Of a stretch of 64,000 nucleotides of DNA, positions 18,373-40,525 are shown in pieces (position 1 is the first letter of the stretch; every line of letters begins with the position of its first letter). Position numbers and translations under genes: made by a program. The notes under the pieces are model-generated. The model was not told the DNA's origin, made no database searches, and saw only the letters and a list, made by a program, of their open reading frames with translations. Source of the stretch: a virus; IMG/VR virus record IMGVR_UViG_3300026478_000449; one strand, written 5' to 3'.

Positions 18373-19052
18373 ACTTAAATTTTATTACCAGTCTTTCTAA
18401 AGAATATTGGGAAGGAACAGGAAAATTTTGTCTAAAGACTTGGAAAAATTTTCCAGGCACAGTGACAGTTTATATCGATCAACAAGAAGGTGACATAGCC
18501 TGGATCAATGAACTACCATCATCCTTTGTTAAAAAATTAGTTCGTGTTCCTAATCTAAATTTAGAAGATAGAGATTCTACAAAAATTAGAAAATTCTGGG
18601 GTAAAGCCTGCGCCCAGATATCTGCAATGAGAGAACGAGGTAAAGATGAAAGAATAGTTTGGATAGATGCTGACGTTGAACAAACAGCATCCACTTTACC
18701 AGAATCTATTTTTTCTTTTAGTTTTATGGAACCAATTGCAATGTTAAACTCCGGTGACGGCGAAGACTGTTGGGAATCCGGCATAGTTGTTTTTAATCAA
18801 ACTGCCGATAAGATCGATTTGGTTGTTAGAAAATATGAAAATATGTATCTAAATCAAGATAACTTGTTTAGTCTATGGAAACCTTACGATGCACAGGCAT
18901 TAGGTGCTGTGGCAATGGAAAGAGGATTTTTAAATTTATGCAAGAAAAAATGTCCTAATGCAGAAGCATTAGCTAATAGTCACTTTGCTCCATATTTTAA
19001 ACATTGGATTAATAAAGATAATAAAAAATTATTAATTGAAAAGAATAAATGA
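18369..19052 (+). CDS. DxD nucleotide-sugar transferase-like protein (family A, copy 2)
   Basis: RIVWIDADV; conserved N-terminus as copy 1. Confidence 0.45.
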   Translation: MNLNFITSLSKEYWEGTGKFCLKTWKNFPGTVTVYIDQQEGDIAWINELPSSFVKKLVRVPNLNLEDRDSTKIRKFWGKACAQISAMRERGKDERIVWIDADVEQTASTLPESIFSFSFMEPIAMLNSGDGEDCWESGIVVFNQTADKIDLVVRKYENMYLNQDNLFSLWKPYDAQALGAVAMERGFLNLCKKKCPNAEALANSHFAPYFKHWINKDNKKLLIEKNK

Positions 19053-19981
19053 CAACAGTAGCGGTATACCACGGTTCTGTACCAAACAAAAAGAGCCAAG
19101 AAAAAATTGATCTTTTAAGATACTTCTCTGAAGGTGCTAGAAGAACAGGATCAATAGTCTACGACTATCTTGATCACTCTTATCGACCATCGGATGTGGC
19201 CATTATACAAGGTTGGGTCGCTCCCGGTCGGCCAACTGGTAAGCATTTACTCTTAAGAAATACTGTTATTCAACAACAACTTAAAAATAAAAGACACGTA
19301 ATAGGTGTTGACAGCAATTTATTTCTTTATAAAAATAAAGAAAATCCTTTGCATTATCTCAGATACAGTTTTGATGGAATATTTCCTAATACAGGAATTT
19401 ATTGTGATACGGAAATTGATCCATTTCGATGGAAAAAAATTAGTCATAATTTAAAAATTCAACCTAAAGAGTGGAGAACTAACGGAGACCATATTTTGTT
19501 GTTGCTACAAAGAAACGGCGGATGGAGTATGGGAAATCTTGATGTACAAGACTGGGCTAACGATGTTATAGCTCAGGTAAGACAATATTCCGATCGACAC
19601 ATAATTATACGACCACATCCTGGAGATAAAGATGCTATAAATTATCTTAATCCTAGACTAGGTAGATGTAAAATTAAATTTTCTAAAAGAATCACTCTTA
19701 GCTATAATAAAAATTTAGAAGATGATTTAGTAGATTGTTGGGCAGCAATTAATTATAATTCAAGTCCTGCTGTAGGAGCAGCGATTGAAGGTGTTCCTAT
19801 TTTTGTAATGGATCCTGCCCGTAGTCAGTGCGCAGAAATTGCTAATACTGATTTATCTCAAATTGAAAATCCACAAATGCCCTATAGAGACAGATGGCTT
19901 GAACGATTAGCCATGTTTCATTGGAATTTTGACGAACTAAGATCCGGCGAATGCTGGAGCCATATGAAAAAATTTATATGA
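19049..19981 (+). CDS. GT-B-like transferase (family B, copy 2)
   Basis: HIIIRPHPGD and NYNSSPAVGAAIEGVPIFV; the RPHP motif is reminiscent of KpsC/KpsS-type capsule Kdo transferases (tentative). Confidence 0.4.
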   Translation: MTTVAVYHGSVPNKKSQEKIDLLRYFSEGARRTGSIVYDYLDHSYRPSDVAIIQGWVAPGRPTGKHLLLRNTVIQQQLKNKRHVIGVDSNLFLYKNKENPLHYLRYSFDGIFPNTGIYCDTEIDPFRWKKISHNLKIQPKEWRTNGDHILLLLQRNGGWSMGNLDVQDWANDVIAQVRQYSDRHIIIRPHPGDKDAINYLNPRLGRCKIKFSKRITLSYNKNLEDDLVDCWAAINYNSSPAVGAAIEGVPIFVMDPARSQCAEIANTDLSQIENPQMPYRDRWLERLAMFHWNFDELRSGECWSHMKKFI

Positions 19982-20727
19982 AAAAGATTTCTGTTATTAC
20001 AAGTTTTAACGAAAAATATTATGAGTTAATTGGCAAATATTGTGTTGCTACATTTTTAAAAAATTGGCCAACTGACATTAATTTAACCTGTTACGTGGAA
20101 GAAATGTCATTAACTCCCGATCCACGTATTATACAAATTCCTTTTACAGAACTTCCTGTTGAATATTTTGATTTGCAAAAAACAAAATTTAAACAAAGAG
20201 TAAAAACTTTTTCTAAAAAAGGTTATTCTGTAATTCACGCTATGGAAAACATAGATTGCGATCTATTAATATGGATTGATTCTGATGTATTAACACATAC
20301 AGCGGTTCCTAGAGAATTTTTAGAAAATTTATGTTCGTCTAAAGATCTAACTACGTTTATGGGTGTATGGCACGAAGCAAATGACAAAGAATATTTCAGT
20401 TGTGAATCAAGTTTTTTTGTTGTAAACAAAACTCATCAAAATTTTTCATTATTTTCAAAGAGATATCGTGAATATTATGATAATCGATTAACTGAGAATT
20501 TAAGAAGATTCTATGACGGTGAAGTCCTTGGAGCAACTATTAAAGATTTAGAAAAATTAGGAGGTATGAATGAAATTAATCCTAACTTTCACAAAACTCC
20601 GATGCCAAGAACCATACTAAAAGATTATTTTACTCATTTTAAGGCAGGACTAAAAGAAGATGATGACCTTGATACGAGTATTGAAGAATTAATTGGCAAT
20701 ATTCAAACTGTTCCAGTTTGCCAATAA
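19978..20727 (+). CDS. DxD nucleotide-sugar transferase-like protein (family A, copy 3)
   Basis: DLLIWIDSDV; ATGA start overlap; track start 19951. Confidence 0.45.
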   Translation: MKKISVITSFNEKYYELIGKYCVATFLKNWPTDINLTCYVEEMSLTPDPRIIQIPFTELPVEYFDLQKTKFKQRVKTFSKKGYSVIHAMENIDCDLLIWIDSDVLTHTAVPREFLENLCSSKDLTTFMGVWHEANDKEYFSCESSFFVVNKTHQNFSLFSKRYREYYDNRLTENLRRFYDGEVLGATIKDLEKLGGMNEINPNFHKTPMPRTILKDYFTHFKAGLKEDDDLDTSIEELIGNIQTVPVCQ

Positions 20728-21533
20728 CTTTCTTTTCTTCTAACCTTTAGATCTTGAGGCTTACTACGGCCTAGATCTTTTCTACCGCCTTTCAAATGGT
20801 CAAGATATGCTCCCCATTCACTGTTAATCAGCGGATGACCTTCTCCAGTGATAAGATGGCTGCTCCAATCTAATTCATTTAAGGTTGAATTTCGTCGTAC
20901 GACATCAAATACAAAACTATCATGCCATTCTTCTAAGGTAAAAATTCCTAATTCTGCACAATCGTACATCCATTGAAATTTTTCTAAGAATTTTTGAACA
21001 GCAGGTGAACGCAAATTCATTGCGTAAAGGCCACATTCACTAAATTTTCCTTTTCTTCCAAGAAAACACAAATCTTTGTCTGCCGGAATTAGACGTTGAA
21101 TTGTTTCCATGGTAATTGGACTATGACAAATGGTATCTGCGTCCATCCAAACTAAAATATCTGCGTCAGTTTCCTTAGCACAGTGAAAAATTGCATAGAC
21201 TTTGTGGGCAAATCTAACAGCATCCCATTTAAAACCTTTGCCAGCATCTTTTCTTCGACTTCGAATAGGATCTGCTGATACATCGCCGTTAGCCTTGGGA
21301 ACATTTTTCCACTTTTCTTTAAATTTCATAAGCTCTTCAACTTCTTCAAGGCGTTTTAATGTCACGTGATTGTGATTTCGTATTGCAGGATTACAAAGTT
21401 CTGGATAAATGTGAAGGGTGACCTCTTCTGGCCACTTTTCACAAAAACTATCTATCATTTTTTGGCCGTATTTTGCACGACCCGCATCATTAAAAGTTGT
21501 TACCACTGCATATTTCATTTTCTTTTTTCCCAA
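20703..21533 (-). CDS. DxD nucleotide-sugar transferase-like protein (family A, copy 4)
   Basis: DILVWMDADT; N-terminal MKYAVVTTFNDAGRAKYGQKMIDSFCEKWP matches the family. Confidence 0.45.
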   Translation of the reverse strand: MGKKKMKYAVVTTFNDAGRAKYGQKMIDSFCEKWPEEVTLHIYPELCNPAIRNHNHVTLKRLEEVEELMKFKEKWKNVPKANGDVSADPIRSRRKDAGKGFKWDAVRFAHKVYAIFHCAKETDADILVWMDADTICHSPITMETIQRLIPADKDLCFLGRKGKFSECGLYAMNLRSPAVQKFLEKFQWMYDCAELGIFTLEEWHDSFVFDVVRRNSTLNELDWSSHLITGEGHPLINSEWGAYLDHLKGGRKDLGRSKPQDLKVRRKESYWQTGTV

Positions 21534-21913
21534 ACGTGAAATTTTTTATCAACCGAGGTGCATACCCAGCCTGTATTGTATAGAGCCTTCATTGTTTTTT
21601 TGTCTACTATAGAATTTCCTTCGACTATTACAACAGATTTAAATCTTGTCCAAAAATTATTCAATTTTTCCAGCCTATCTATTTTATCTAGGTTAAAGTA
21701 TATGGCCTTTATTTCATATAATGTTTCAATATAGTCAAAATTTTCTCTATAAATTAATTTTTTTGATTTTAAAGATCTATCTTCTGCTTCTATTATAAAA
21801 GTTGTGTTATGTAAAGACACTATGTCCTGCAACATTCCAAAACCGTCACCAATTACCAAAGCATTTTCTGCTCTGCCAATAATTTTTTTGATCTTTTTTT
21901 CAAACGAGGCCAT
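21515..21913 (-). CDS. hypothetical protein (132 aa)
   Basis: Translationally coupled upstream of 20703..21533. Confidence 0.35.
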   Translation of the reverse strand: MASFEKKIKKIIGRAENALVIGDGFGMLQDIVSLHNTTFIIEAEDRSLKSKKLIYRENFDYIETLYEIKAIYFNLDKIDRLEKLNNFWTRFKSVVIVEGNSIVDKKTMKALYNTGWVCTSVDKKFHVWEKRK

Positions 21914-21947
21914 AAATTAATTAAATACTCTGATATTTATTACTCCT

Positions 21948-22772
21948 ATGCGCTTCAAACTTTATCGTGAATACGGTGCCTTAAACAGCGCACCAATTTT
22001 TAATGCAGTCGAACAAGGACTGCGTTCACTTGGCCACGAAATTGTTAATAAAGACGAAGACATACCGGTAATTTGGTCAGTTTTATGGTCAGGCAGGATG
22101 AAAAACAATCAAGCCATATATCATAATGCTATAAAAAATAAAAAATCTGTTTTAATTATAGAAGTTGGAAATTTAAAAAGGAACGAGACCTGGAGAATTT
22201 CTTTAAACCATATAAACGGATTAGGCGTTTTTAATAATCTTACAAATTTAGACTCCTCGAGACCAGGAAAATTAGGTATAGAATTAAAATCTCCTCCTAA
22301 CAAAACAAGAGGAGAGATACTAGTGGCTTGCCAACATCAAGAAAGTCTTCAATGGGAAGGTATGCCAACTATGGCAGAATGGTGTAAGGATACGATTTCT
22401 AAAATTAGACGGCACTCACAGCGCAGGATTATAGTTAGACCACATCCAAGGTCTCCATTTCCGTTTAGTGTGCCTAATGTAATATTAGAGAGGCCTAGAC
22501 ATATTCCAAACACCTATGATAATTTTGATATTTTTTACAACTATCATTGCGTGATTAATTATAATGCAGGACCGTCTGTTCAAGCTCCTATAAATGGGAT
22601 TCCCGTGCTCTGTGATTCTTCTAGCCTAGCTGGCGAATTAAGCATTAAATGGGAAAATCTTGAAAATCCCACATTGCCAGATAGAGAAGAATGGTTTCTC
22701 AAACTCTGCCATACCGAATGGACTGTTGACGAAATAAGTCAAGGTATTCCTTTGGCAAGATTGTTCGGTTGA
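21948..22772 (+). CDS. GT-B-like transferase (family B, copy 3)
   Basis: RIIVRPHPRSP and NYNAGPSVQAPINGIPVL. Confidence 0.4.
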   Translation: MRFKLYREYGALNSAPIFNAVEQGLRSLGHEIVNKDEDIPVIWSVLWSGRMKNNQAIYHNAIKNKKSVLIIEVGNLKRNETWRISLNHINGLGVFNNLTNLDSSRPGKLGIELKSPPNKTRGEILVACQHQESLQWEGMPTMAEWCKDTISKIRRHSQRRIIVRPHPRSPFPFSVPNVILERPRHIPNTYDNFDIFYNYHCVINYNAGPSVQAPINGIPVLCDSSSLAGELSIKWENLENPTLPDREEWFLKLCHTEWTVDEISQGIPLARLFG

Positions 22773-22803: not shown

Positions 22804-23991
22804 ATGTTAAGCTCTGTGTATGCCGAAGACATTTTTCTTCGTTTTTATACTCTTGTTCAATCTGGTCAACTACACGTTCAGCACCAGGACTTCTCGCCTA
22901 TTCTTAGTTTTCACGAGAAAATTTCCAATGACAGCGAACTAACAAAAAATCAAGCTAACTACATTTTAAAAATATTAGAAAAATACAAAAATGTATCGGC
23001 ATTATTGGGTTTTGATTACAAAGACGCATTGTTAACAGCGCAATGGCAAAGACCTTTTAGAGTACTAGATCTTACAAAAAAAATCTATGTAGAAAACAAA
23101 GATGGATCTTTAGAAATTTGTCTAAAATTTCCATATCAATTGAAAAAAGAGTTTGACGATGAAATAAATGTTAACTTGCCTAATTCAACTAGAGTCAGTC
23201 ATTGGGATCAAGAAGACAAAGTTCGACGTTTAAAATTTTACGAATACAACTTGATCAGTCTATATGAATTTGCTAATAAACACAACTTTGTAATTGACGA
23301 CAGTTTTATGAGTGTGTTGTCAGATGTTGAAGAAATATGGCAAAATTCAGACAACATTATTCCCTGTTCGGAAATAATTAATTCAAAAGTTGAATTAGTA
23401 AATGCTGATCCAGAAACCGAAGAATGGTGGTCAAATACTCGCACCGAATCATTAAACAATGATTTATTACTGGCTAAGAGTATGGGATTTCCATTGAAAA
23501 AAAATCCGGTAAGTTTAGTAGAAAAAATAGCATCTTCGTCTGAAAATTTATTCTGGATTAAAAATGTTCAAGATTTCTTTAACATTAGCACTACCGTTAA
23601 AGGCAGAGTCTGTATAATTTTAGATAGAACATCTGACACACTAAAATGGTTACAAGAATTTGTAAAAGCAGCTGATCAAAATAGTGTTCCTAGAGAAGAA
23701 ATTAAGGTATGTTTTAGAGATACTAAAGATTCAAAGACCGGTCTTAATGACTGGATTAAACTAGCAGGTGTTGGCGGCAAAGTGGATACTGGAAAATTTT
23801 TAATATTTGAATCTAAGCCAGCTAAATGGTTGTTTAAAGATAACCTTGATGTTAAAATGTTAGTAACAAATAACATTTATCCGCCAACAAGTGTTATTAC
23901 AAAAGATTGGTTTGATTCTCATCCTTGTGTAATTTATCTAGGTGCAGCAAAACCAAGCACTCATAAAGGAAGAAAGATTGTCGAATTGTAA
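22804..23991 (+). CDS. hypothetical protein (395 aa)
   Basis: Long ORF between the glycan island and uvsW. Confidence 0.4.
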   Translation: MLSSVYAEDIFLRFYTLVQSGQLHVQHQDFSPILSFHEKISNDSELTKNQANYILKILEKYKNVSALLGFDYKDALLTAQWQRPFRVLDLTKKIYVENKDGSLEICLKFPYQLKKEFDDEINVNLPNSTRVSHWDQEDKVRRLKFYEYNLISLYEFANKHNFVIDDSFMSVLSDVEEIWQNSDNIIPCSEIINSKVELVNADPETEEWWSNTRTESLNNDLLLAKSMGFPLKKNPVSLVEKIASSSENLFWIKNVQDFFNISTTVKGRVCIILDRTSDTLKWLQEFVKAADQNSVPREEIKVCFRDTKDSKTGLNDWIKLAGVGGKVDTGKFLIFESKPAKWLFKDNLDVKMLVTNNIYPPTSVITKDWFDSHPCVIYLGAAKPSTHKGRKIVEL

Positions 23992-25432
23992 ACTTACAAT
24001 TAGAGATGAAGTTAACATTAAAGTCGATGGACTTAGTGTTGAAACACGAAGAAAAATTGTCAACAAATTAAAATTTGACCTTCCCTATGCAAGGCATATG
24101 CCAGCCTACAAACTAGGTCGCTGGGACGGAACTAAAACATATTTTAGCATTGGTGGCAACGGTTATCTTGCACACTTAGATGTTATTCTTCCTATAATAG
24201 ATGAAGCAGGATACGACATTGAAGTTGAAGATTTAAGATCTTCTCATGATTTTAAATTCGATCCAGTAACTGAAAACTATTGGGCAGACAAAGGAAAAAC
24301 TTGGCCTAAAGGTCATCCTGCCGAAGGACAGCCAATTGTTTTACGTGATTATCAATATGACGTTGTTAATAAATTTTTAGAAAATCCACAAGCTCTACAG
24401 GAGGTAGCAACAGGTGCCGGCAAGACAATTACTACTGCGACGTTATCGCATCTTTGTGAACCGTATGGCCGTACGATGGTTATTGTTCCGAACAAATCGC
24501 TTGTTGTCCAAACTGAAGAAGACTACAAAAATTTAGGATTAGATGTAGGAGTTTATTTTGGTGATAGAAAAGAACTTAACAGAACGCACACTATCTGTAC
24601 TTGGCAAAGTCTTAACGTCTTGGATAAAAAGAGTTATGACGAAGAGAGTCTTTCGTTAGCAGAGTTTTGTGAAGGAGTAGTAGCAATCATTGTTGACGAA
24701 GTCCATCAGGCTAAGGCAGATGTATTAACAAAACTTCTTACACAAAACTTTAGAAATTGTGCCATTCGTTGGGGATTAACTGGAACTGTCCCTAAGGAAA
24801 ATTGGGAATTTCAAGGTATCCTTGCTAGCATTGGTCCAGTTATTAATAACGTATCTGCACACGATCTACAACAAAAAGGAGTGTTGGCAAATCTTAATAT
24901 TAATATTGTTCAAACTAACGATGTTGAGGTGTTTAGAAGTTATCAAGAAGAGTATACTTGGTTAGTAACTGATCCAAAAAGATTAACTTGGATAGCAAAT
25001 AAAATTAAAGAATTAAGTCAATCAGGCAACACCCTAGTCCTCATCAATCGCATTGATACTGGAAATAAACTAATGGAGCAATTGCCAGATGCGGTGTTTA
25101 TCAACGGTAGCGTTAAGTTAGATGATCGAAAGGAAGAATACGATGAAGTACGGACTAGCAATGAAAAGATTATTGTGGCGACTTATGGTGTGGCCGCTGT
25201 GGGTATTAATATCCCTAGGATTTTTAATTTGGTTCTTTTGGAACCCGGAAAGAGCTTTGTTAGGGTTATACAATCTATTGGGCGAGGTATTAGAAAAGCA
25301 GAAGACAAAGACCACGTTGAAATCTGGGATATAACTAGTACCTGCAAATATGCAAAACGACATTTAACAGAACGTAAAAAATACTATAAGGAGGCGAAAT
25401 ACCCCTTTACAATTATTAAGGTGAATACATGA
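23942..25432 (+). CDS. uvsW: UvsW-like SF2 DNA helicase
   Basis: RDYQ, Walker A ATGAGKT, DEVHQA (T4 UvsW DECHLA), TWQS, IGRGIR; ATG start overlaps upstream gene by 50 nt. Confidence 0.75.
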   Translation: MQQNQALIKEERLSNCKLTIRDEVNIKVDGLSVETRRKIVNKLKFDLPYARHMPAYKLGRWDGTKTYFSIGGNGYLAHLDVILPIIDEAGYDIEVEDLRSSHDFKFDPVTENYWADKGKTWPKGHPAEGQPIVLRDYQYDVVNKFLENPQALQEVATGAGKTITTATLSHLCEPYGRTMVIVPNKSLVVQTEEDYKNLGLDVGVYFGDRKELNRTHTICTWQSLNVLDKKSYDEESLSLAEFCEGVVAIIVDEVHQAKADVLTKLLTQNFRNCAIRWGLTGTVPKENWEFQGILASIGPVINNVSAHDLQQKGVLANLNINIVQTNDVEVFRSYQEEYTWLVTDPKRLTWIANKIKELSQSGNTLVLINRIDTGNKLMEQLPDAVFINGSVKLDDRKEEYDEVRTSNEKIIVATYGVAAVGINIPRIFNLVLLEPGKSFVRVIQSIGRGIRKAEDKDHVEIWDITSTCKYAKRHLTERKKYYKEAKYPFTIIKVNT

Positions 25433-26783: not shown

Positions 26784-27249
26784 ACACGTAGACCTTTTTA
26801 AAGATATGATTCCTGCTGTGGATATGGGCTTAAAAGAGCTTTGGGATGCCGCCACTGAAGAAGGTCGTAAAGAGATCAAAGGCGACCTGTGGAATCTTAA
26901 TCGCTATATTAGTAATGTAAAAAGTAACAATTCAGAGTTACAAGAACATTACCTAATGACAGTGAATGAATTTTACAATAAGAATTGGGCAGACATTAGT
27001 AAGCATCCAAAACTGCAATGGCTTACTCTCGCAATGTGCAGCCATGAAAGTAAGAAAACACAATTCCACGAGTGGTTACCGTTAAAACGTGAAAAGAATA
27101 AGAAAGAAGAATTTTTAGCAGAACTATTTCCTAATATGAAGAGAGCAGACATTGAAACACTTGCAGCCATTACCTCAGACAAAGAAATCAAACAATATTG
27201 CGAGTCTCTTGGTTGGGATAAAAAAGAAGTCAATGGAATTAAATTATAA
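26770..27249 (+). CDS. hypothetical protein (159 aa)
   Basis: Compact ORF. Confidence 0.4.
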   Translation: MGKNKHVDLFKDMIPAVDMGLKELWDAATEEGRKEIKGDLWNLNRYISNVKSNNSELQEHYLMTVNEFYNKNWADISKHPKLQWLTLAMCSHESKKTQFHEWLPLKREKNKKEEFLAELFPNMKRADIETLAAITSDKEIKQYCESLGWDKKEVNGIKL

Positions 27250-27916
27250 ATGTGAATATTGCGGTAAGTTATTTGCCAAAGAAAAAACTTTGGTAGTTCA
27301 TATTTGCGAACAAAAACGTCGACATCTTAGCAAAAATGAGAAGCACGTTCAGATGGGTCTAATGACCTATCAAAAATTCTACGAGATCGCACAAAAAGGG
27401 AAAAGTCAAAAATCATTTGACGAATTTGCATCTAGCCCGTACTACACCGCTTTTATCAAGTTTGGTAGTTTTATGGTTAATACTGCACCAATACATCCAG
27501 ACAAATTTATTGAATTTGTAATCAAGAGCGGCGTGAAACTTGATCACTGGTGTAGAGACGAACTCTACGAAACATATGTAAAAGAATTAATTAAAATAGA
27601 ACCAGCAGACGGAGCCATACAGCGTACAATACAGACTATGATGGACTGGGGTGAGAAAAACAATTCGTCTTGGGAACATTATTTTGCCTACGTGAATCTT
27701 AATCGTGCAACTCACGATATTAAAGAAGGATTGATTAGTCCTTGGGTAATTTTAAATACTAAAGAAGGCAAAACAATGCTTCAAAAAATGAACGACGAAC
27801 AATTAGAAATCGTTGGACAATATATCGATCCTCAGTTTTGGATGCGTAGATTTAAGTCATTGCCAGCAGACACAGAACTAGTAAAAGATGTTATTAAAGA
27901 GGCAAAAATATTATGA
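27233..27916 (+). CDS. zinc-finger-containing hypothetical protein
   Basis: YKCEYCGKLFAKEKTLVVHIC C2H2/C2HC-like finger at N-terminus; start trimmed to the MELNYK ATG. Confidence 0.4.
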   Translation: MELNYKCEYCGKLFAKEKTLVVHICEQKRRHLSKNEKHVQMGLMTYQKFYEIAQKGKSQKSFDEFASSPYYTAFIKFGSFMVNTAPIHPDKFIEFVIKSGVKLDHWCRDELYETYVKELIKIEPADGAIQRTIQTMMDWGEKNNSSWEHYFAYVNLNRATHDIKEGLISPWVILNTKEGKTMLQKMNDEQLEIVGQYIDPQFWMRRFKSLPADTELVKDVIKEAKIL

Positions 27917-28101
27917 AAGACAATGAAGAATATATTTCAAGAGATGATCTTGATATTGAAGTTATGAGCACCTCTGATGAAGAGCCCTGCGTTTATGTTA
28001 AATTTTCAAATTTTGCAGACGCTGAAGATGCAGAAGAATATGCAGATTTTTTAGCAGAAACATTACCTCTATTGTTATTTGAAACTACTAGGATGCAATA
28101 A
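27913..28101 (+). CDS. small highly acidic protein (62 aa)
   Basis: About 30 percent Asp/Glu. Confidence 0.35.
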   Translation: MKDNEEYISRDDLDIEVMSTSDEEPCVYVKFSNFADAEDAEEYADFLAETLPLLLFETTRMQ

Positions 28102-28102
28102 T

Positions 28103-28681
28103 ATGCCTGATATCGATATTGACTTTGTTGATAGAGACAATGCCTTAAAACACTTTAAACACGTTAAGGCAAGTCGTATTGACGACGGAAAATTAGTCAA
28201 GCACAATACGGGCGTGTATATGCACGAAGTACCTATGAGTTCCCTCGAAGCAGTATGTGCGGTACCTTACGACAAAGCAGAAGAACAGGGTTATTTTAAA
28301 ATTGACTTTTTGAATGTAGGTTTATACAAAGGTGTTCGAGACGAAGAACATCTTGTACAATTAATGAACACGGAGCCACTATGGGATCTTCTAGAGCAAG
28401 ACGATTTCGTCAACTTACTCTTTCACGTAAACGGGCATGGTTCTATATTAAGGCAAATGAAGCCGACGAGTGTGGAACAACTGGCGGCCATTCTAGCAAT
28501 GATACGCCCAGCGAAACGTTATCTGATTGGCAAAGATTGGACTACGGTGATGACGGAAGTTTGGACGAAACCGGAGAATGACGAATACTATTTTAAAAAA
28601 TCACACGCTACAGCGTATGCGGTAGCTATTGTGGTTCAGATGAATTTAATCTGCGAAGGTATTAGTTACGGATTTAGTTAA
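28103..28681 (+). CDS. stand-alone minimal DnaE (Pol III alpha)-type palm-domain protein
   Basis: MPDIDIDFV (E. coli DnaE MPDFDVDFC with D401/D403), GYFKIDFLNVGL (GLVKFDFLGL with D555), QLAAILAMIRPA ([13 protein letters not shown]), FKKSHATAYAV (FNKSHSAAYAL), all in DnaE order; TAATATG overlap start. Confidence 0.6.
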   Translation: MPDIDIDFVDRDNALKHFKHVKASRIDDGKLVKHNTGVYMHEVPMSSLEAVCAVPYDKAEEQGYFKIDFLNVGLYKGVRDEEHLVQLMNTEPLWDLLEQDDFVNLLFHVNGHGSILRQMKPTSVEQLAAILAMIRPAKRYLIGKDWTTVMTEVWTKPENDEYYFKKSHATAYAVAIVVQMNLICEGISYGFS

Positions 28682-29049
28682 GAACTTTTTCTGACCAAAG
28701 TAATAGATTTTCTTTTAATTCTTTTAACAATGATATCATTTAAACTGGTACAGGGTCCAAGAATTATTTTAACATCTTTTGTACTAAAGTTTTTAATGAC
28801 ATATTTGAATACAGCAATTTCTTTAAGTAAGAAAATGTTAATAGGAATCTGCCTATTAGATTCCCACCACCAGGCTTCGCCCAGTTCTAGAAATCGTTGT
28901 TTTTCTGTTTCTGTACGTATTGCAGAGTAGTCGTAAAAGCTAGTTACTTGTGCATCCTGGTTGATAATGATTCCTACGTACTCTTGATTAACGTGGGTTA
29001 TAACGCTGATGAACGGAAAGTTTTCTTGTAAGTTAGTTGTTATTCTCAT
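28678..29049 (-). CDS. hypothetical protein (123 aa)
   Basis: Lone minus-strand ORF; Trp-rich WWWESNRQ segment. Confidence 0.35.
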   Translation of the reverse strand: MRITTNLQENFPFISVITHVNQEYVGIIINQDAQVTSFYDYSAIRTETEKQRFLELGEAWWWESNRQIPINIFLLKEIAVFKYVIKNFSTKDVKIILGPCTSLNDIIVKRIKRKSITLVRKSS

Positions 29050-30169: not shown

Positions 30170-31219
30170 ATGACACTAGTCGTAGATAAATTTCGAACGT
30201 TACTTCCTCCGCGAGCCAAACACTCGCCGTCTGGTTGGACATCGTTTAACGCCCCTTGTTGCCAGCATCGTGGCCATAGTCCCGATACTCGCAAACGTGG
30301 TGGTATTAGGTTTGACGGAAATAGTGTAGTTTATAATTGCTTTAACTGCAAGTTTTCTACAGGCTGGCAACCAGGGGCACCCTTTGGTGAAAAAATGAAA
30401 ACACTGGCGCGATGGATGGGCGCCAGTGAAGACCTTATAAAAGATCTAGTGTTTGAAGCTCTTAAAACAGAAGGTCCCGATTATCACGAATATCATTCAG
30501 AAGATAACACCCCAATAAATTTTACAGATAAAGCATTACCAGAAGGTGCGATGCCTTTGGCAGAATGGGGGAATTTAATAGAAGGCGAAGTTGAAGAACA
30601 GATTGGTGAAGACTATTCAAACGTATTAAGATATCTAATCAGCAGAGGATATAACAATCCATTTGAATATGATTTTTATTGGAGCCCGGCTCCTGGATAT
30701 ATTGATAGAGTTATTGTTCCTTTTAGATGGGAAGGAAGAATAGTAGGAAATACAGCTAGAAAAGTTAGAGACGGAAAACCAAAATATCTTTCAGATCAAC
30801 ATCCACATTTTGTATTCAACTTTGACCGTCAAAAAGAAAATCAGAAGTATATATTTGTCTGCGAAGGTCCATTTGATGCATTGGCAATAGACGGTGTTGC
30901 TCTTCTTACTAACGATATAGCTGAACAACAATCTAGGATAATTAATAGTCTAGGTGCTGAAGTTATTGTAATTCCGGATCAAGATCAAGCAGGACTAGTA
31001 TTATTTGACAGAGCTGCCGAATTAAATTGGTCAGTGGCTATGCCTAACTGGGACGACGATGTAAAAGACGTTGCAGATGCTGTAAAATCCTACGGAAAAT
31101 TATTTGTTATTGTTGATGCAATAAAGACAGCACAAAAAGGATCGATTAAAATTAATATGGCTAAGAAGCAACAAGAACACAAATTGGAGAGACTCGAATA
31201 TGCTAAAGAAAATACTTAA
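30170..31219 (+). CDS. 61: DNA primase (T4 gp61-like, zinc ribbon + TOPRIM)
   Basis: CCQHRGHSPDT...YNCFNCKF zinc ribbon; FVCEGPFDALAIDG TOPRIM; VIPDQD. Confidence 0.7.
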   Translation: MTLVVDKFRTLLPPRAKHSPSGWTSFNAPCCQHRGHSPDTRKRGGIRFDGNSVVYNCFNCKFSTGWQPGAPFGEKMKTLARWMGASEDLIKDLVFEALKTEGPDYHEYHSEDNTPINFTDKALPEGAMPLAEWGNLIEGEVEEQIGEDYSNVLRYLISRGYNNPFEYDFYWSPAPGYIDRVIVPFRWEGRIVGNTARKVRDGKPKYLSDQHPHFVFNFDRQKENQKYIFVCEGPFDALAIDGVALLTNDIAEQQSRIINSLGAEVIVIPDQDQAGLVLFDRAAELNWSVAMPNWDDDVKDVADAVKSYGKLFVIVDAIKTAQKGSIKINMAKKQQEHKLERLEYAKENT

Positions 31220-31310: not shown

Positions 31311-32255
31311 ATGATAAGCTGGGGAATAAACGCACTTAATCACGGCTCTAGTCTTGCCGTGTTTAAAGACGGAAAATTTATTTCAAATACCTTTGATAAG
31401 ACTGACACGTTAGATACTAAGACTATTACAACTGCTCTACATCACGGAGCACCTTCGGATATATTTTGGTACGAAAGGCCTTGGATTAAAAAAGCAAGAC
31501 AGGCCTATGCAGGTCAATGGCATAGAGTCTTTGATTTTCAAGCAATACCTAGTGCCTATATTAGAAGTATACGTGCTAATTATGCAAAGATGCATTATAC
31601 TCCGCATCACGCAAGTCACGCTGCCGCTGGTTACTATACCAGTCCATTTAACCATTGTGCCATTGTTGTGCTTGATGCGATTGGCGAATGGGAATGCGCT
31701 ACAATATGGGAAGGTAAACACGGCGAAATGAAAAAAGTATGGAGTAAGACATATCCTAACAGTTTAGGATTATTTTATTCCGCTTTCACTGAGTTAATAG
31801 GGCATACTCCTATTCAAGATGAATTTCTTTTACAAAAAGATGCAGAACTAGGCGATCCTAACAAATATTATTTTGATGTAAAAGAATATATGGGCAGCGT
31901 TATTAATGCGCATCAAAATATGCATCAAGGCATTTGGAATTGGCCGTATGAAATTACCAATGAAGACAAGGTACACATTGCCGCTGCCGTTCAGGAAGTG
32001 TTTGAAGAACAAATTGATATGGTAATGAAAATTGCCAAAGATTTAACAGGAGCCGATTGTCTAGTATATATGGGTGGCTGTGCTATGAATAGTCGAGCAA
32101 ACAAAAAGGTAGTAGAACCAAAATTTAATTACATTTGGTCATTGCCGCAACCTGGCGATCCTAGTAGCAGTATTGGCGCTGTACTGTATCACACTAAGCA
32201 AAGAGTTTGGGATGCAAACCTTGGGGTTGTAAAACATATCGAGATTCGTGTATAA
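31311..32255 (+). CDS. Kae1/NodU-type (carbamoyltransferase-like) ASKHA-domain protein
   Basis: N-terminal ISWGINALNHGSSLAVFKDG and HYTPHHASHAAAGYYTSPF resemble the carbamoyltransferase HHxxHAxSAxxxSxF metal-site block; only the Kae1-like domain is present. Confidence 0.4.
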   Translation: MISWGINALNHGSSLAVFKDGKFISNTFDKTDTLDTKTITTALHHGAPSDIFWYERPWIKKARQAYAGQWHRVFDFQAIPSAYIRSIRANYAKMHYTPHHASHAAAGYYTSPFNHCAIVVLDAIGEWECATIWEGKHGEMKKVWSKTYPNSLGLFYSAFTELIGHTPIQDEFLLQKDAELGDPNKYYFDVKEYMGSVINAHQNMHQGIWNWPYEITNEDKVHIAAAVQEVFEEQIDMVMKIAKDLTGADCLVYMGGCAMNSRANKKVVEPKFNYIWSLPQPGDPSSSIGAVLYHTKQRVWDANLGVVKHIEIRV

Positions 32256-32880
32256 TAGTATTATGTTGAGTACAGAAAAAAAATTTACTAGCGGAAATCA
32301 ATGGATCATCGATTCGGAATATCCTAACTATAAAAATTTGTATAAATTTTTATTGCCTAGTAACGAGCAAGAATATAGTTCCGAGACATCGGCGCATTTT
32401 GCAAAACAATATCCATTGTGGAGAGATCCTAATCTTTCTGACGAATACTATTCACATAAAAAATTCAATAACGATAATTCTTCAATACCTTGGCAGCAAG
32501 AACTCGACAACATTACAAAATGGACTCAGGCAAAATTAATAGAGCATCATATCATTAAACAAATCACGCCTGTAATATCTTGGTGGATGGACTATGAGCC
32601 AGGTGGCTGGCAGGCGATGCATACGCATAGTGTAAATTGTATTACACAGGTAATTTATATGGATGAGCCCAATATTAATGAAAGTACTGCGGCAAAGGAT
32701 TATACGCCTGGATCAATGTATGCGTTAATGACAGATGGAAAACCAGTATATATTCCATTTGTTGGATTTCCTGGTAGAAGTATTTTAATGACAGGAGATG
32801 TATTTCACGGAGTATATCCTGTTAAGACCACACCAAGAAGATCAATTATTATAGATTACATTTACAACAAAAATGATTAA
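32248..32880 (+). CDS. divergent 2OG-Fe(II) oxygenase-like protein
   Basis: MHTHSVNCITQVIYM ... GDVFHGVYP loosely follows the TIGR02466-type pattern of the other copies. Confidence 0.3.
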   Translation: MYNSIMLSTEKKFTSGNQWIIDSEYPNYKNLYKFLLPSNEQEYSSETSAHFAKQYPLWRDPNLSDEYYSHKKFNNDNSSIPWQQELDNITKWTQAKLIEHHIIKQITPVISWWMDYEPGGWQAMHTHSVNCITQVIYMDEPNINESTAAKDYTPGSMYALMTDGKPVYIPFVGFPGRSILMTGDVFHGVYPVKTTPRRSIIIDYIYNKND

Positions 32881-34312
32881 AGACTACGGATACGAACTAC
32901 AAAAATTATATCTTGAGCTAATGCTAGCAGACGCAGAAGTGTTTGTACGTTGCCAAGGTATTTTTGATCACACACTTTTTGACAGAAAATTACAAGATGC
33001 AGCAGAGTTTATTAATCTCTATGCAAAAGAATATTCTGTTATGCCTGACTACGAAATGGTTAATGCATCGTGTAGATCAGATCTTAAAAAGCCAGAAGAT
33101 ATCAAAGAAGGTCACAACGATTGGCTAATGGACGAGTTTGAAAACTTTACTCGCCATAAGGCATTAGAACGTGCAATTATTAATTCTGCAGATTTACTTG
33201 AAAAGAAAGACTACGGTCAAGTAGAATCTATGATTAAAGAAGCAGTACAAATTTCTTTAACTAAAGATCTAGGCACTGATTATTTTGAAGATCCTAGACA
33301 GCGATTAATGCGTATCAAAGACAAGAATGGTCAAATTAGCACAGGCTGGCCTACTCTTGATCGTAGACTATTTGGAGGAATGAATCGTGGAGAACTTAAC
33401 ATTTTTGCTGGTGGATCAGGTGCAGGTAAATCCCTCTTTCTTGCTAACCTTGGCGTGAATTGGTGTCTACAAGGACTTAATGTTTTATATCTAACATTAG
33501 AACTTTCAGAAGACCTAGTAGCTATGCGTATTGATGCAATGACTACTGGTATTTCAACAAAAGAGATTTTTAAAGATCTAGAAAACGTTGAAATGAAAGT
33601 TCGTGTTATTGGTAAGAAGGCTGGTAAACTACAAATCAAATATATGCCTAGTGGCAAGACTGCCAATGACCTTAGAGCATATATGAAAGAGTTTGAAATC
33701 AAAACAGGTGCTAAGATTGATGTATTACTAGTAGATTACTTAGACTTGTTAATGCCAGCAAGTCGTAAGATTTCAGCAGAAAACTTGTTTATTAAAGACA
33801 AGTATGTTTCTGAAGAATTACGCAACCTAGCAATGGAAAAACAATGTATTCTAGTTACTGCGGCACAGTTGAACCGTGGTGCTGTTGAAGAAGTTGAATT
33901 TGACCACAGTCATATTTCAGGCGGTCTTTCTAAGATTCAAACAGCAGATAACGTGTTTGGTATCTTTACGTCACGTGCTATGCGTGAGCGTGGACGTTAT
34001 CAAATACAATTAATGAAAACTCGTTCTAGTTCAGGTGTAGGACAAAAGGTAGATCTAGAGTTTAATCTAGAAACGCTTAAGATTAGCGATTTGCCCGAAG
34101 ATGAACAAGAGTCGCATAACGGAGCAAATAGAGGCACAAGCAGTATCATTGACAGCATTAAACGTAAAACAGAAATTAATAAAGTAGATCCAGAAACAGG
34201 CGAAATAGATCCAACCCAAGGCGCTAGCATAGGCAAAGTTCGAGCAAATGTAGGTTCGTCAAAACTACGTGAAATCTTGAACAGTATGGGTGGTGATGAT
34301 GAAGACATCTAA
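32873..34312 (+). CDS. 41: replicative DNA helicase (T4 gp41 / DnaB family)
   Basis: FAGGSGAGKSLFLANL Walker A, LELSE, VLLVDYL, AAQLNR blocks typical of DnaB/gp41. Confidence 0.8.
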   Translation: MIKDYGYELQKLYLELMLADAEVFVRCQGIFDHTLFDRKLQDAAEFINLYAKEYSVMPDYEMVNASCRSDLKKPEDIKEGHNDWLMDEFENFTRHKALERAIINSADLLEKKDYGQVESMIKEAVQISLTKDLGTDYFEDPRQRLMRIKDKNGQISTGWPTLDRRLFGGMNRGELNIFAGGSGAGKSLFLANLGVNWCLQGLNVLYLTLELSEDLVAMRIDAMTTGISTKEIFKDLENVEMKVRVIGKKAGKLQIKYMPSGKTANDLRAYMKEFEIKTGAKIDVLLVDYLDLLMPASRKISAENLFIKDKYVSEELRNLAMEKQCILVTAAQLNRGAVEEVEFDHSHISGGLSKIQTADNVFGIFTSRAMRERGRYQIQLMKTRSSSGVGQKVDLEFNLETLKISDLPEDEQESHNGANRGTSSIIDSIKRKTEINKVDPETGEIDPTQGASIGKVRANVGSSKLREILNSMGGDDEDI

Positions 34313-34921: not shown

Positions 34922-35635
34922 ATGCGTTTACGTGAATTAGATGAATCTTCAGATTTTGTTACCGTAAACTCAAAACTAAACCCTAAAATTTGGGCAAGTG
35001 ACAAACTCAATCCAGAAGTTAGAAATAAATTAATTGAAATTGCACACGCCTTTGAAGAATTTGTAGGCATTGATCTAGAAGTAGAAGATTACACAATCAC
35101 CGGATCTAATGCTAATTATACTTGGACACAGTATTCAGATCTAGATTTACACATTATCATCCCAGGCACAGCAACAGACGAACAACGTGAATTATTTTCC
35201 GCTAAAAAGGCACTTTGGGCAGAACAACACGACATCACTATCAAAGGCTTGCCCGTAGAATGCTACGTACAAGGCGCAGATGAACCACATCACTCAACAG
35301 GCGTTTTTTCTCTGTTAGATGATAAGTGGCTCGTAGAGCCCAAGAAGGTAAAACCTCAAGTAGACGATGCTGCAATTGAAGCCAAAAAAGATGCAATACT
35401 GCGTCAGATCGAACACGCATTATTGAGCAAGGATATCGATAAGTTACGCACAGTAAAAGATAAAGTTACACAGATGCGCAAGAGCGGATTGGAACGTGCG
35501 GGCGAGTGGTCAGTAGAAAATCTTGTATTCAAAATACTTCGTAACCTTGGACTTATCGACGAGCTCACTGACAAAATTAGAGAATTGGAAGATCAAGAAC
35601 TTTCTCTAGAACAGGCTATACAACCGCTTGACTAA
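34922..35635 (+). CDS. nucleotidyltransferase-domain protein (Pol-beta superfamily)
   Basis: TGSNANYTWTQYSDLDLHII = hG[GS]-x10-DhDh minimal NTase motif. Confidence 0.45.
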   Translation: MRLRELDESSDFVTVNSKLNPKIWASDKLNPEVRNKLIEIAHAFEEFVGIDLEVEDYTITGSNANYTWTQYSDLDLHIIIPGTATDEQRELFSAKKALWAEQHDITIKGLPVECYVQGADEPHHSTGVFSLLDDKWLVEPKKVKPQVDDAAIEAKKDAILRQIEHALLSKDIDKLRTVKDKVTQMRKSGLERAGEWSVENLVFKILRNLGLIDELTDKIRELEDQELSLEQAIQPLD

Positions 35636-35684: not shown

Positions 35685-36122
35685 ATGTTACACATCATCC
35701 AAGACTTATCAGATAATCTACTTAATTTAATCAAAGACGATCCTGTTCGTCCTGAAATTCCCGTTGAACAAAGAGTTAATCAAAACTCAAAAATCTTTGT
35801 TCTTCGCGACGAAACCACACAAGAACCTCTGGCAGTGACCTGCGTAAAGTTCTTAGAAAAAATTCCTAGTTCTGTGAACGATCTAGCCGAAGCTGCAATT
35901 AACACAAATACCGCAGTATTCTATACTATTTGGTCATATGCTGCTGGTGCAGGCCGTACTCTAATCGAACAGGCTCAAGAGCACATTAAAAAGGAACACC
36001 CTGAAGTGGAAACCTATGTTACTCTAAGTCCTAAGACAGAAATGGCCAAGAGATTTCACTTGAAAAACGGTGCTGAGATTCATAGAGAAAACGAAGATAG
36101 TGTAAACTACCTATACCACTAA
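35685..36122 (+). CDS. hypothetical protein (145 aa)
   Basis: Last plus-strand gene before the strand switch. Confidence 0.35.
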   Translation: MLHIIQDLSDNLLNLIKDDPVRPEIPVEQRVNQNSKIFVLRDETTQEPLAVTCVKFLEKIPSSVNDLAEAAINTNTAVFYTIWSYAAGAGRTLIEQAQEHIKKEHPEVETYVTLSPKTEMAKRFHLKNGAEIHRENEDSVNYLYH

Positions 36123-37114
36123 CCAGCGTGGTATCCTCTAGACTGCATAACTTTTTCTACCCCAGACCGCTTTTTCCAAGGCAGGTTCCATTTTGAAGTC
36201 TGTATTTCTTTGATAAAGAATTCTACGGCCTGGGGATTCAATTCACCTTCGACAAGATCCTGGTCAGACAGCCAATCTGGACCAATCAGCTCTGTATGAA
36301 ATCCTGAGGTAAGATCCAAGGGTTGACCTTTGACCAAGGTGTCTAGAATCTTTTTAACTAGGACATCGTGATTGCACAGGCACATATGATTGTATCTACA
36401 GTCTCCGCCCTGGAAATATCCCGAGTGTCCTTGGTCCAGCATTTCATCTAGTTTTTTCTTATCCTTGTATTCGCCCCATTGAATAAAAGATAAATTTCCC
36501 TGAGCAAACAACAGATGTTCATATTGATCGCAGCCAACTAGGTCCATATCAAAGCCCGGAATAACTAGAGCACGATTTAGACCTCTTCTGGCAATTTCGT
36601 AGGCAATGAGTCCTAGGCGCGATCGCATTGCTAGACTATCAATGTGTGGTCTTTGTATGTGCTTGATAAACAGTTCAATGGCCTTGGCCTGTTCTGAAGA
36701 TATGTGTTGATCAAGATCCATGATATTCCAGTTACTGATCGTAGGTTCATCTTCAAAGTACCAAAATCTTGCTGGACTGGTTAGAATAAAGATCACAATG
36801 TCATTGGGATCTATTAAATGAACAACTTTTAGGAATTCATTTAGGGCCCAGTCCTGTGCAGAACCTACCAATGAATTATTGCGTAACTGTATTACTTCAC
36901 CTAGCTCAGTGGCCAAGGCGTGACTCAGTTGACGTGTCCATACGCGAATAGGATCGCGATCGGGCCACAGCGCAGACCAGCTATCACCAAATATCCATAG
37001 TCTGCGAGGATCTTTTTTAGCTTCTGGGTGTGTATGATTCAACTTCTGCCTTCCATTGATCCAGCGTTCGCTGCTCTTGTTGAACAGCAAAATCTTGGGC
37101 CAATCTCCAGGCAA
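36119..37114 (-). CDS. SGNH/GDSL hydrolase-like protein
   Basis: LWIFGDSWSALW matches GDSL block I. Confidence 0.4.
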   Translation of the reverse strand: MPGDWPKILLFNKSSERWINGRQKLNHTHPEAKKDPRRLWIFGDSWSALWPDRDPIRVWTRQLSHALATELGEVIQLRNNSLVGSAQDWALNEFLKVVHLIDPNDIVIFILTSPARFWYFEDEPTISNWNIMDLDQHISSEQAKAIELFIKHIQRPHIDSLAMRSRLGLIAYEIARRGLNRALVIPGFDMDLVGCDQYEHLLFAQGNLSFIQWGEYKDKKKLDEMLDQGHSGYFQGGDCRYNHMCLCNHDVLVKKILDTLVKGQPLDLTSGFHTELIGPDWLSDQDLVEGELNPQAVEFFIKEIQTSKWNLPWKKRSGVEKVMQSRGYHAG

Positions 37115-37232
37115 GGTCTTCGTTGGTGATTAGACGGCCGTCGATCTGCTGTCTTTCTATTCTAATGCGTGTTTTTAAATTTCGGGCCATTACTCTATAT
37201 GCTATCACGGGTCGTCTCCTGTAATAGTATAT

Positions 37233-37820
37233 TTATACCCTTGTGGTTGTGTAATTGAAGATCACACAGATACGCTGTTGATGTTCTTGAGGACGTCCAG
37301 TCCAGCGCCAGTGTGTGCCGTCAAAGTCGTACCAAGTACCACCACGGGGTTCTAGACGATGCACAATGTTCTCCAAATTCTGGGGTAATTCCCAGTCCTG
37401 CATCCAAGAACGTTCACGAAGAATGTCTGTGGTGCCGTCGGAATCCATGGGGAAATAAATGCCAGTTTGATGTGGGCCTGTGATGTCAATGTGCGGTTGG
37501 CTATTGCCACGATCTCCGGGTAGAGAATTAACTACTCTTATTTTAAAAATTCTACTTAGGTTTTTGCCCTGATGATCCAAGGCTCGGAATAGGATCATTT
37601 GACAGATGTCCATTAGTTCTTCGTTGATCACGGTGTCGTTGTCATAGACCACATTGGTATATTGGTGCCAGTCGTATCTGCGAATATCTCGGGCCATTTC
37701 TGGAGGAAAAAATCCCCAATTAGTCAATGGGTTGCCGATGCGTTCAGCTAGCCAGCCCCGGACCTGACCCTCAAAAAGGTCATCAATTTGAGTCAGTTTA
37801 GGCAACAGTTCTTCAGTCAT
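37233..37820 (-). CDS. hypothetical protein (195 aa)
   Basis: Compact ORF. Confidence 0.35.
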   Translation of the reverse strand: MTEELLPKLTQIDDLFEGQVRGWLAERIGNPLTNWGFFPPEMARDIRRYDWHQYTNVVYDNDTVINEELMDICQMILFRALDHQGKNLSRIFKIRVVNSLPGDRGNSQPHIDITGPHQTGIYFPMDSDGTTDILRERSWMQDWELPQNLENIVHRLEPRGGTWYDFDGTHWRWTGRPQEHQQRICVIFNYTTTRV

Positions 37821-37876
37821 AGTATCTCCTTGTCACATACTTATCCCATAAACTGGTCAGTGAATTAAATATTGAT

Positions 37877-38500
37877 ATGCAGACCCTAGGCTTATTTTCC
37901 GAACCCGTGACTCGCCAACAGATTTGGCCCGGAACCTGGCAACAGCAGCTTGATCAGATTCCCTGTGAATATCAGACCAATCACTGTTACTCCCTGTCCC
38001 AGAGAGTTTTGGACACAGTTCCAGATCTACACCAAATAATTGAACAAAGGGTTCAACAGTGGGCTGAACAGGTTCTGGGCATCACGGATACACTCTACAT
38101 CACAGAAAGTTGGATCAATGTCTATAATACCGGCGACTCCATACATCAGCACAGCCACCCTAATTCCATAGTGTCGGGAACTTGGTATTGGTCAACACCC
38201 GAAACAGAGATTAGATTTCACAAACAGGGCTTAAACTCATCTACACACTGGACTATGAAACTGGATCAAAGGCCCACAGCCTGGTCACAGACAGAAGTCA
38301 TACTGCCCGTAGAACAAGGTGATCTACTCCTATGGCCCAGTTATCTACAGCACTCAACCACAGCACACACCAGCGAAGAACCAAGAAAAACTCTGAGCTT
38401 TAATGCAATGCCTAGATCTTGGGGAAGTAATTTCTATAGAGTCGGCGAAGCCGCAGCGCAAATTCCTGAGCGCGAAGCGCAGCAGCGCAAGATTTTTTAG
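37877..38500 (+). CDS. 2OG-Fe(II) oxygenase (cyanophage TIGR02466-like family)
   Basis: HQHSHPNSIVSGTWYW ... LLLWPSYLQHST; paralog of 57478, 61205(-) and 32248. Confidence 0.5.
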   Translation: MQTLGLFSEPVTRQQIWPGTWQQQLDQIPCEYQTNHCYSLSQRVLDTVPDLHQIIEQRVQQWAEQVLGITDTLYITESWINVYNTGDSIHQHSHPNSIVSGTWYWSTPETEIRFHKQGLNSSTHWTMKLDQRPTAWSQTEVILPVEQGDLLLWPSYLQHSTTAHTSEEPRKTLSFNAMPRSWGSNFYRVGEAAAQIPEREAQQRKIF

Positions 38501-38532
38501 AAGAATTATCTGCGCATATATCCGCAGAAGCC

Positions 38533-38796: not shown

Positions 38797-38858
38797 TACA
38801 CTAGTATTTACATCAAACCCTTATATCTATGTGAGATCCCAAGGGCAGTTTGCGTCGT

Positions 38859-39059: not shown

Positions 39060-39062
39060 ACA

Positions 39063-39727: not shown

Positions 39728-39889
39728 AGACTAGTATATACTAAGAAAAGGGTTTTAGAGGTCAAAAATTTGGCCGCGCAAAAAATTTGGGTGGAGTACT
39801 TTTCATTTCAGGGTGGTGATTTTAGACCCCATACCGCTAGTAAAACTACTACTATAGTATACACACTATACCGGCCACCCCCCACCACC

Positions 39890-40459: not shown

Positions 40460-40490
40460 TTTCAGCTCCTAGTTGTTTAGTGTATGTGTA

Positions 40491-40522: not shown

Positions 40523-40525
40523 AAT

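Follow-up and report, generated by a model that had tools for sequence, protein, structure and literature searches.

A 192-residue phage protein is very probably the C-terminal subunit of a split, minimal DnaE-like nucleotidyltransferase

The small gene at positions 28103–28681 of the window (the whole stretch of 64,000 nucleotides of uncultured-phage DNA analyzed here) very probably encodes the C-terminal subunit of a minimal C-family (DnaE-like) nucleotidyltransferase that is made of two polypeptides and is typical of RaK2/PA5oct/Atu_ph07-type ('group 2.2') jumbo phages. We refer to this subunit as the C-unit and to its presumed partner as the N-unit. A first-pass annotation of the window had taken the ORF for a novel enzyme that stands alone. 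Its novelty falls away, since the passages on the split enzyme in Iyer et al. 2021 (Viruses 13:63, PMC7824862) already describe a split minimal Pol III alpha in group 2.2 jumbo phages, alongside a family-B polymerase. Nor does the enzyme appear to stand alone: the NTP-binding half is a separate protein of ~167 aa that is encoded tens to hundreds of kb away in relatives and is fused to the C-unit in one lineage.

Results

The C-unit gene and its neighborhood

We read the C-unit gene on the plus strand from an ATG at 28103 to a TAA stop at 28679–28681, which yields a protein of 192 aa. The mechanical ORF list starts the ORF at a TTG at 28079; public gene calls and homologs begin at MPD... or a few residues before it. 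Upstream lies an acidic ORF of 62 aa, whose TAA stop (28099–28101) is followed by a single T (28102) and then by the ATG. Because the upstream stop ends one nucleotide before the ATG, the two reading frames are closely juxtaposed without overlapping, and the TAATATG overlap start described in the first-pass annotation has to be corrected. The gene and the features around it are:

23942–25432, plus strand: UvsW-type DEAD-box helicase, conserved upstream context
27233–27916, plus strand: 227-aa protein with an N-terminal C2H2-like zinc finger (weak Pfam matches; phrog_11058, E 2.6e-60)
28090–28093, plus strand: AGGA, Shine-Dalgarno-like, 9 nt 5' of the ATG, read from the sequence and presumed to function as such
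28103–28681, plus strand: C-unit gene, 192 aa, putative metal- and template-binding unit of the split minimal DnaE-like polymerase
28678–29049, minus strand: convergent ORF of 123 aa, phrog_11637, function unknown, whose stop shares TTAA 28678–28681 with the C-unit gene
30170–31219, plus strand: DNA primase of the gp61/Toprim type, conserved downstream context of the C-unit
32873–34312, plus strand: DnaB/gp41-type replicative helicase, conserved downstream context

The gene order UvsW-type helicase, small ORFs, zinc-finger protein (phrog_11058), C-unit, convergent ORF, structural protein, primase, DnaB is common to Phosso, Atu_ph07, PA5oct, RaK2 and Paride. The phrog_11637 neighbor and its tail-to-tail overlap with the C-unit gene are both kept in Phosso, Atu_ph07, PA5oct and RaK2, and also beside a fused 375-aa gene on the contig L255 (see below). 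This ORF is conserved context of the C-unit, and any role in the enzyme is putative at most. The TTAA shared by the two convergent stops is a palindrome and leaves no room for a terminator between the genes. The phrog_11058 protein is encoded close upstream of the C-unit, with one small ORF between them, and Paride, PA5oct and RaK2 have a CDS of similar size at the corresponding place, a likeness of size and position.

As the first-pass annotation had it, the gene sits among replication genes of the T4 type. A PHROG scan of the window recovered a gp32-like SSB, UvsX, UvsY, UvsW-type helicase, primase and DnaB-type helicase, together with tail tube, head closure, large terminase and endonuclease V. 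The scan took in most ORFs, as concatenated chains, while the stretches 13098–22772 and 56007–63914 were covered by HMM and tblastn searches only. When 20 kb of the window was compared with phage genomes by megablast, no match was obtained.

G+C content is ~0.31–0.42 over 1–36 kb of the window and 0.44–0.49 over 36–54 kb, where the genes lie mostly on the minus strand. The 36000–54000 block contains an AAA ATPase (phrog_1297) beside a 401-aa phrog_1314 protein, as well as two tRNA genes and a DksA-like zinc-finger protein. The block may have been acquired as an island, or the assembly may be chimeric. Two independent contigs, L003 and L004, confirm continuity of the window only up to ~38.8 kb. 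Between UvsY and the helicase module, a low-GC block (13098–22772, 0.31–0.36) holds about ten ORFs that by eye resemble nucleotide-sugar enzymes and glycosyltransferases (Rossmann-type N-termini, a cytidylyltransferase-like ORF). Primase and DnaB are separated by an insertion (31311–32880, plus strand) that consists of a carbamoyltransferase (PF02543 on a matching contig; phrog_1601) and a 210-aa ORF, and genes of the 2OG-Fe(II) oxygenase type follow further on, at 37877–38500. The carbamoyltransferase and the oxygenase-type genes hint at nucleotide or DNA modification. Two further features of the window are:

34922–35635, plus strand: 237-aa Pol-beta-type nucleotidyltransferase (Pfam NTP_transf_2, E 1.4e-4; phrog_36119, function unknown)
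53556–53714, minus strand: adjacent tRNA-Met (CAT) and tRNA-Arg (TCT), found with ARAGORN, inside the high-GC block

The nucleotidyltransferase at 34922–35635 lies just downstream of DnaB, has its complete signature on a single chain (TGSNANY...SDLDLH) and bears no relation to the split DnaE.

Motif content of the C-unit compared with E. coli DnaE

We fetched the E. coli dnaE sequence as the reference for residue equivalences. All four DnaE motifs that had been reported in the ORF were found, collinear with E. coli DnaE and at positions aligned to its residues 399–766:

ORF residues 1–8: MPDIDIDF, equivalent to E. coli DnaE 399–406
ORF residues 63–74: GYFKIDFLNVGL, equivalent to E. coli DnaE 550–559
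ORF residues 96–137: LLEQDDF...MIRPA, equivalent to E. coli DnaE 599–641
ORF residues 164–174: FKKSHATAYAV, equivalent to E. coli DnaE 756–766

In this alignment D3 and D5 correspond to D401 and D403 of DnaE, K66 and D68 to K553 and D555, R135-P136 to the RPG motif, and F164–H168 to FNKSH. The compressed spacing noted earlier is also real, with 65 residues from D3 to D68 compared with 154 from D401 to D555, and 27 residues from RPA to FKKSH compared with 115 in DnaE. The 192 residues cover just DnaE ~399–418, ~545–641 and ~753–776. Both carboxylate strands (DxD and K-x-D) are retained, as are the FNKSH helix and the beginning of the fingers as far as RPG, with the thumb cut down to a segment of ~45 residues. 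Relative to DnaE, the PHP domain is missing, with everything N-terminal of ~286, and so is most of the thumb, through the loss of 89 residues that separate the carboxylate strands; also gone are 88 residues from RPG to FNKSH and all residues past ~776 (the rest of the fingers, the clamp-binding region, the OB fold and the tau-binding region). The 88 residues lost from the fingers include RRAMGKK (709–715), a segment that presumably contacts the incoming nucleotide in DnaE structures. The first-pass annotation had listed the PHP, thumb, fingers, beta-clamp-binding and OB regions as absent. This is accurate for the PHP, beta-clamp-binding and OB regions and mostly so for the thumb, but the fingers are kept in part: motifs 3 and 4 map to the DnaE fingers region, the ORF's only Pfam match is to the fingers model PF17657 (E 0.025), and it is the middle with RRAMGKK that is missing.

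The ORF had further been credited with all catalytic palm motifs. The three carboxylates and the K553 equivalent are indeed present, but the nucleotide-binding motif GRGS(G/S)xxS (GRGSGAGS, residues 361–368 of DnaE) was detected by regular-expression and HMM searches neither in the ORF nor anywhere in the 64-kb window. The Pol-beta-like nucleotidyltransferase fold holds the G-S loop together with both carboxylate-bearing strands in one compact domain. Thus, a split between them would leave neither part with a complete active site.

Family assignment, fold and conservation

The ORF matched PHROG 11778 ('DNA polymerase') with an E value of 1.5e-67, residues 3–185 aligning to positions 8–193 of the 197 in the profile, and PHROG 405 (full-length DnaE) with an E value of 2e-8. 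With the single sequence as query, the sole Pfam match was DNA_pol3_finger (PF17657; score 14.4 against a cut-off of 22), TIGR00594 scored 18.4 against a cut-off of 434, and phmmer against the PDB gave collinear matches on Pol III alpha at E 0.3–0.6. A profile of 120 homologs matched nine PDB sequences, all of them Pol III alpha, in four collinear segments (best E 8.9e-5), and the NCBIfam matches were to Pol III alpha models only. An AlphaFold2 model made from the 120-homolog alignment was compact and confident, with a mean pLDDT of 91.5. In a Foldseek search of the PDB with this model, the best 14 matches were without exception C-family polymerases; most of them were Pol III alpha chains, and one entry was PolC. 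By structural comparison, the whole protein superposes on the polymerase core and shares its core fold. The likeness of the ORF to DnaE is far beyond chance, and the derivation from a C-family palm proposed in the first-pass annotation is borne out by profile and structure searches, in which the best matches were all to C-family polymerases.

Thirteen positions are invariant in the 120 homologs, which reach down to 35% identity: D3, D5, D7, H34, G37, K66, D68, R135, P136, W146, W154, H168 and N181. Among them is the complete Asp triad (D3, D5 and D68), whose conservation in homologs had been suggested as a check. Against the closest homologs with unsaturated dS, dN/dS was 0.11–0.17, and the C-unit gene is under purifying selection. 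We conclude that the ORF derives from the C-family (DnaE/PolC) polymerase core, is intact and under selection, and retains the Asp triad.

Searching phage genomes by tblastn returned 96 records with a C-unit, all from jumbo myoviruses of the RaK2 / 121Q / PA5oct / Atu_ph07 / Phosso / XacN1 type; these records are mostly 285–490 kb long, a few being partial. Identity of the window's C-unit to the copies in cultured phages is at most 54%. The family comprises at least 7980 proteins, of 189–218 aa among 240 listed, and an exhaustive HMMER search of 1.84 billion representatives gave 614 clusters at 50% identity, 378 of them at E ≤ 1e-10. Metagenome contigs from JGI and ENA, up to 208 kb long, carry a protein identical to the window's.

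The N-unit is encoded by a separate gene in related phages

Paride, a relative of PA5oct, has a second small CDS annotated as 'DNA polymerase', Paride_0087 (169 aa), which is located ~43 kb from the C-unit homolog and three genes upstream of the clamp loader. The C-terminal end of Paride_0087 reads ...WGVGRGSSVASYVLFLIGVHKVDSLKYNLDIKEFLK. It aligns to residues 323–392 of E. coli DnaE (E 2e-7), a stretch that includes the GRGSGAGS loop at 361–368, and an HMM built from five N-units matches DnaE 319–392. Pfam PF07733 matches the N-unit with an E value of 3.9e-12, the match ending at profile position 94. The N-unit, at ~167 aa, consists of helices and a triphosphate-binding loop (GVGRGSSVxS) and is equivalent to DnaE ~319–392. 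Its alignment stops six residues short of DnaE MPDFDVDF, and the window ORF begins exactly at MPDIDIDF, with no extra sequence at the junction on the side of either unit. The N-unit family numbers at least 7996 proteins; among 120 listed, the length is 166–171 aa and all carry PF07733. In every genome examined, the N-unit gene was a short way upstream of the clamp loader.

The two units occur together. N-units were found in 110 phage records, ~14 of which are ordinary full-length DnaE phages, compared with 96 for the C-unit, and the genus counts among jumbo phages are nearly equal (N-unit/C-unit: Escherichia 34/34, Pseudomonas 11/11, Klebsiella 10/11, Erwinia 8/8, Xanthomonas 4/4, Yersinia 4/4). 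A separate, distant N-unit is present in Paride, PA5oct, RaK2, Atu_ph07, a Vibrio phage and two IMG/VR contigs of the window's clade. The distance between the units is ~43 kb in Paride, 34 kb in RaK2 and 182 kb in Atu_ph07. It is ~180 kb on both IMG/VR contigs, 3300024503_000015 (270 kb) and 3300042350_002797 (365 kb), whose C-units are 71% and 68% identical to that of the window, respectively. The earlier conclusion that the ORF is not a fragment of a split gene, drawn for the window, is contradicted by its relatives, in which the other half is a separate distant gene. Its caveat that partner exons of a pseudogene might lie elsewhere was half right: there is a partner at another place, but it is a conserved gene of its own and not a set of pseudogene pieces.

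Within the window, no N-unit was found by tblastn with the Paride or IMG/VR N-units or by searching six-frame ORFs of at least 50 aa with the five-N-unit HMM. Neither phmmer and tblastn searches with E. coli DnaE against six-frame ORFs nor the PHROG scan revealed DnaE likeness elsewhere in the window, and Pfam searches of ten neighbors gave no DnaE signal in the upstream zinc-finger protein, the 62-aa acidic ORF or the convergent ORF. The earlier observation that the flanking ORFs are without DnaE similarity thus extends to the whole window. Two weak collinear DnaE matches at 52164–52423 (minus strand) were rejected as unrelated small ORFs. The PolB and clamp loader of Paride had no match in the window, in searches where Paride DnaB, primase and C-unit were matched as positive controls. 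PolB is encoded in relatives as RaK2 gp100 and as Paride_0110/0112; in Paride (L009:37883–43109) the family-B polymerase is annotated as two 'DNA polymerase' CDSs (803 and 379 aa) that flank a homing-endonuclease CDS. The 207,869-bp contig that carries the identical C-unit is shared by none of the 120 listed N-units. The N-unit gene of the window's own phage would have to lie outside the 64-kb window.

A natural fusion of the two units

One protein, P0429 (375 aa; L255:1066–2193), combines N-unit and C-unit in a single chain in the order of DnaE. It is the sole exception in size among the best 150 of the 614 clusters. Its junction reads ...VIGVGRGSSSASLLLFLLKIHLIDPIKYKLNIKEFIK-DNKEGIYNIA-DFDIDTKNRE..., that is, N-unit, an 11-residue linker and C-unit. 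A single PF07733 match (residues 97–207) spans this junction, as does a single TIGR00594 match. The gene occupies the C-unit locus and is followed by a convergent ORF homologous to the phrog_11637 neighbor. Although it comes from one ENA metagenome contig of 2.4 kb, the fused sequence indicates that the N- and C-units are functionally linked. The passages on the split enzyme in Iyer et al. 2021 do not mention a fused variant.

Proposed mechanism and alternative explanations

We propose that the C-unit represents a condensed DnaE from residue 399 on, made up of the D3/D5 strand, a short substitute for the thumb, the K66/D68 strand and reduced helical fingers with RP(A/G) and FKKSH. N-unit and C-unit would associate non-covalently, and the Pol-beta-like palm with its two-metal active site would be complete only in the heterodimer, to which the N-unit would bring the GRGS loop and the C-unit the Asp triad. 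The heterodimer may extend DNA 3' ends during replication or repair, working alongside the family-B replicase, as suggested in the passages on the enzyme in Iyer et al. A role in primer extension or repair is a plausible guess. Because the RRAMGKK fingers segment, most of the thumb and the clamp-binding region are absent, templated and processive synthesis is not assured. Our literature search on the split enzyme found no biochemical or structural work, and results for 'DnaE-like' proteins were actinophage primase/polymerases. A serious possibility, which we advance tentatively from the sequences, is that the two-chain enzyme of ~360 residues is a fully active template-directed DNA polymerase. 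It would then be by far the smallest of the C family and might have a dedicated replisome role beside the family-B replicase, such as the extension of primase products before hand-off, or gap or repair synthesis.

A heterodimer of N- and C-units could also be real without being a templated DNA polymerase, acting instead as a non-templated or RNA-directed nucleotidyltransferase, as a synthase of signalling nucleotides or as a mostly structural component of the replisome. Such a function would fit the loss of the RRAMGKK segment, most of the thumb and the clamp and OB modules, and also the family-B replicase that these phages already have, as seen in relatives and in the passages from Iyer et al. 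We nonetheless judge it unlikely, since the DNA-facing fingers motifs RP(A/G) and FKKSH are kept, the whole protein superposes on the polymerase core, and the genes of the two units lie by primase/DnaB (C-unit) and by the clamp loader (N-unit).

It is more doubtful still that the 192-aa protein alone forms an active Pol-beta-like palm, as first proposed. In favor of this reading, the ORF has the three catalytic Asp and the K553 equivalent, none of which varies among the 120 homologs, and all listed homologs but one are shorter than ~235 aa. However, the GS/NTP-binding loop, the first strand and the helices of the fold are missing from the ORF and are carried by a separate protein, which strictly co-occurs with the C-unit and whose end coincides exactly with the junction. 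In addition, a natural fusion of N- and C-units exists, and the split would fall within the minimal nucleotidyltransferase fold.

Cyanobacterial DnaE is encoded by two distant genes, dnaE-n and dnaE-c, and a natural split intein yields the full-length replicase. This precedent would suggest that the phage halves are likewise joined covalently, through a split intein (protein trans-splicing) or splicing at the RNA level, and the Paride family-B polymerase, with its homing-endonuclease CDS between two polymerase CDSs, could be read in the same way. Yet the N-unit ends with ...EFL(R/K), ~6 residues before DnaE MPD, and the C-unit starts at DxDxD or at most ~12 residues before it, which leaves no space for an N-intein of ~100 aa or a C-intein of ~35 aa. 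Moreover, Met is followed by Pro and not by the Cys, Ser or Thr required for splicing, and in the natural fusion the two units are joined by an ordinary linker of 11 residues. With these points against it, covalent joining is highly improbable. No intein fragments were found at the N-/C-unit split site, so that trans-splicing is not expected and assembly would have to be non-covalent.

Finally, the first-pass alternative of a decaying remnant or pseudogene fragment of a full-length dnaE, to which the very short length and the loss of most DnaE domains might point, can be dismissed almost entirely given the dN/dS of 0.11–0.17 against the closest homologs, the 614 clusters at 50% identity with about 8000 or more proteins of a constant ~192 aa, the catalytic residues invariant in 120 homologs, the synteny kept from Pseudomonas to Agrobacterium phages and the compact, confident model.

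Comparison with known systems

The split Pol III alpha of group 2.2 jumbo phages, as presented in the passages of Iyer et al. (Viruses 13:63), is of the same family and size as the window ORF, with the same DxDxD start and neighbors, and probably from the same type of genome (T4-like SSB, UvsX/Y/W, primase and DnaB); in relatives of the window's phage, too, the NTP-binding N-unit is encoded at a distance. Nothing substantial differs in that comparison, the window copy being from an uncultured phage. Full-length DnaE and PolC (E. coli Pol III alpha, Taq DnaE 2hpi/3e0d, G. kaustophilus PolC 3f2b) have the same Pol-beta-like palm, with D401/D403/D555 and K553 and the order RPG and FNKSH. In contrast, they are 1000–1400 aa in size, compared with 192 aa for the C-unit and about 360 with its partner. 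Unlike in DnaE/PolC, the palm of the jumbo-phage enzyme is split over two polypeptides, and the C-unit is without their PHP domain, clamp-binding motif, OB fold and tau-binding region. The cyanobacterial split DnaE resembles the phage enzyme in having two distant genes, but its split site is different. Minimal NTP_transf_2 / MNT enzymes, such as the window ORF at 34922–35635, share the superfamily fold, two-metal chemistry and small size. However, they hold GS loop and DxD in one chain (PF01909), whereas the C-unit is without the GS half, and their kinship to DnaE is at the superfamily level only.

Discussion

Conceptually, the window gene brings nothing new: a 2021 publication presented both the family and its split architecture, and annotations in PHROGs, GenBank and JGI already carry the label. 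It is an additional member, from an uncultured phage, of a computationally described family, and that family is very widespread: its metagenomic copies number in the thousands, and it forms at least 614 clusters at 50% identity. What changes is the reading of the gene. From its sequence alone the ORF passes for a complete mini-polymerase, but its active site would be completed only by a second gene. The passages of Iyer et al. 2021 (Viruses 13:63) raise the idea that the enzyme might preserve a near-ancestral state of the bacterial replicase core. P0429 offers a ready single-chain construct for testing activity, and the two-chain enzyme, if active, would define the minimal core of a C-family polymerase.
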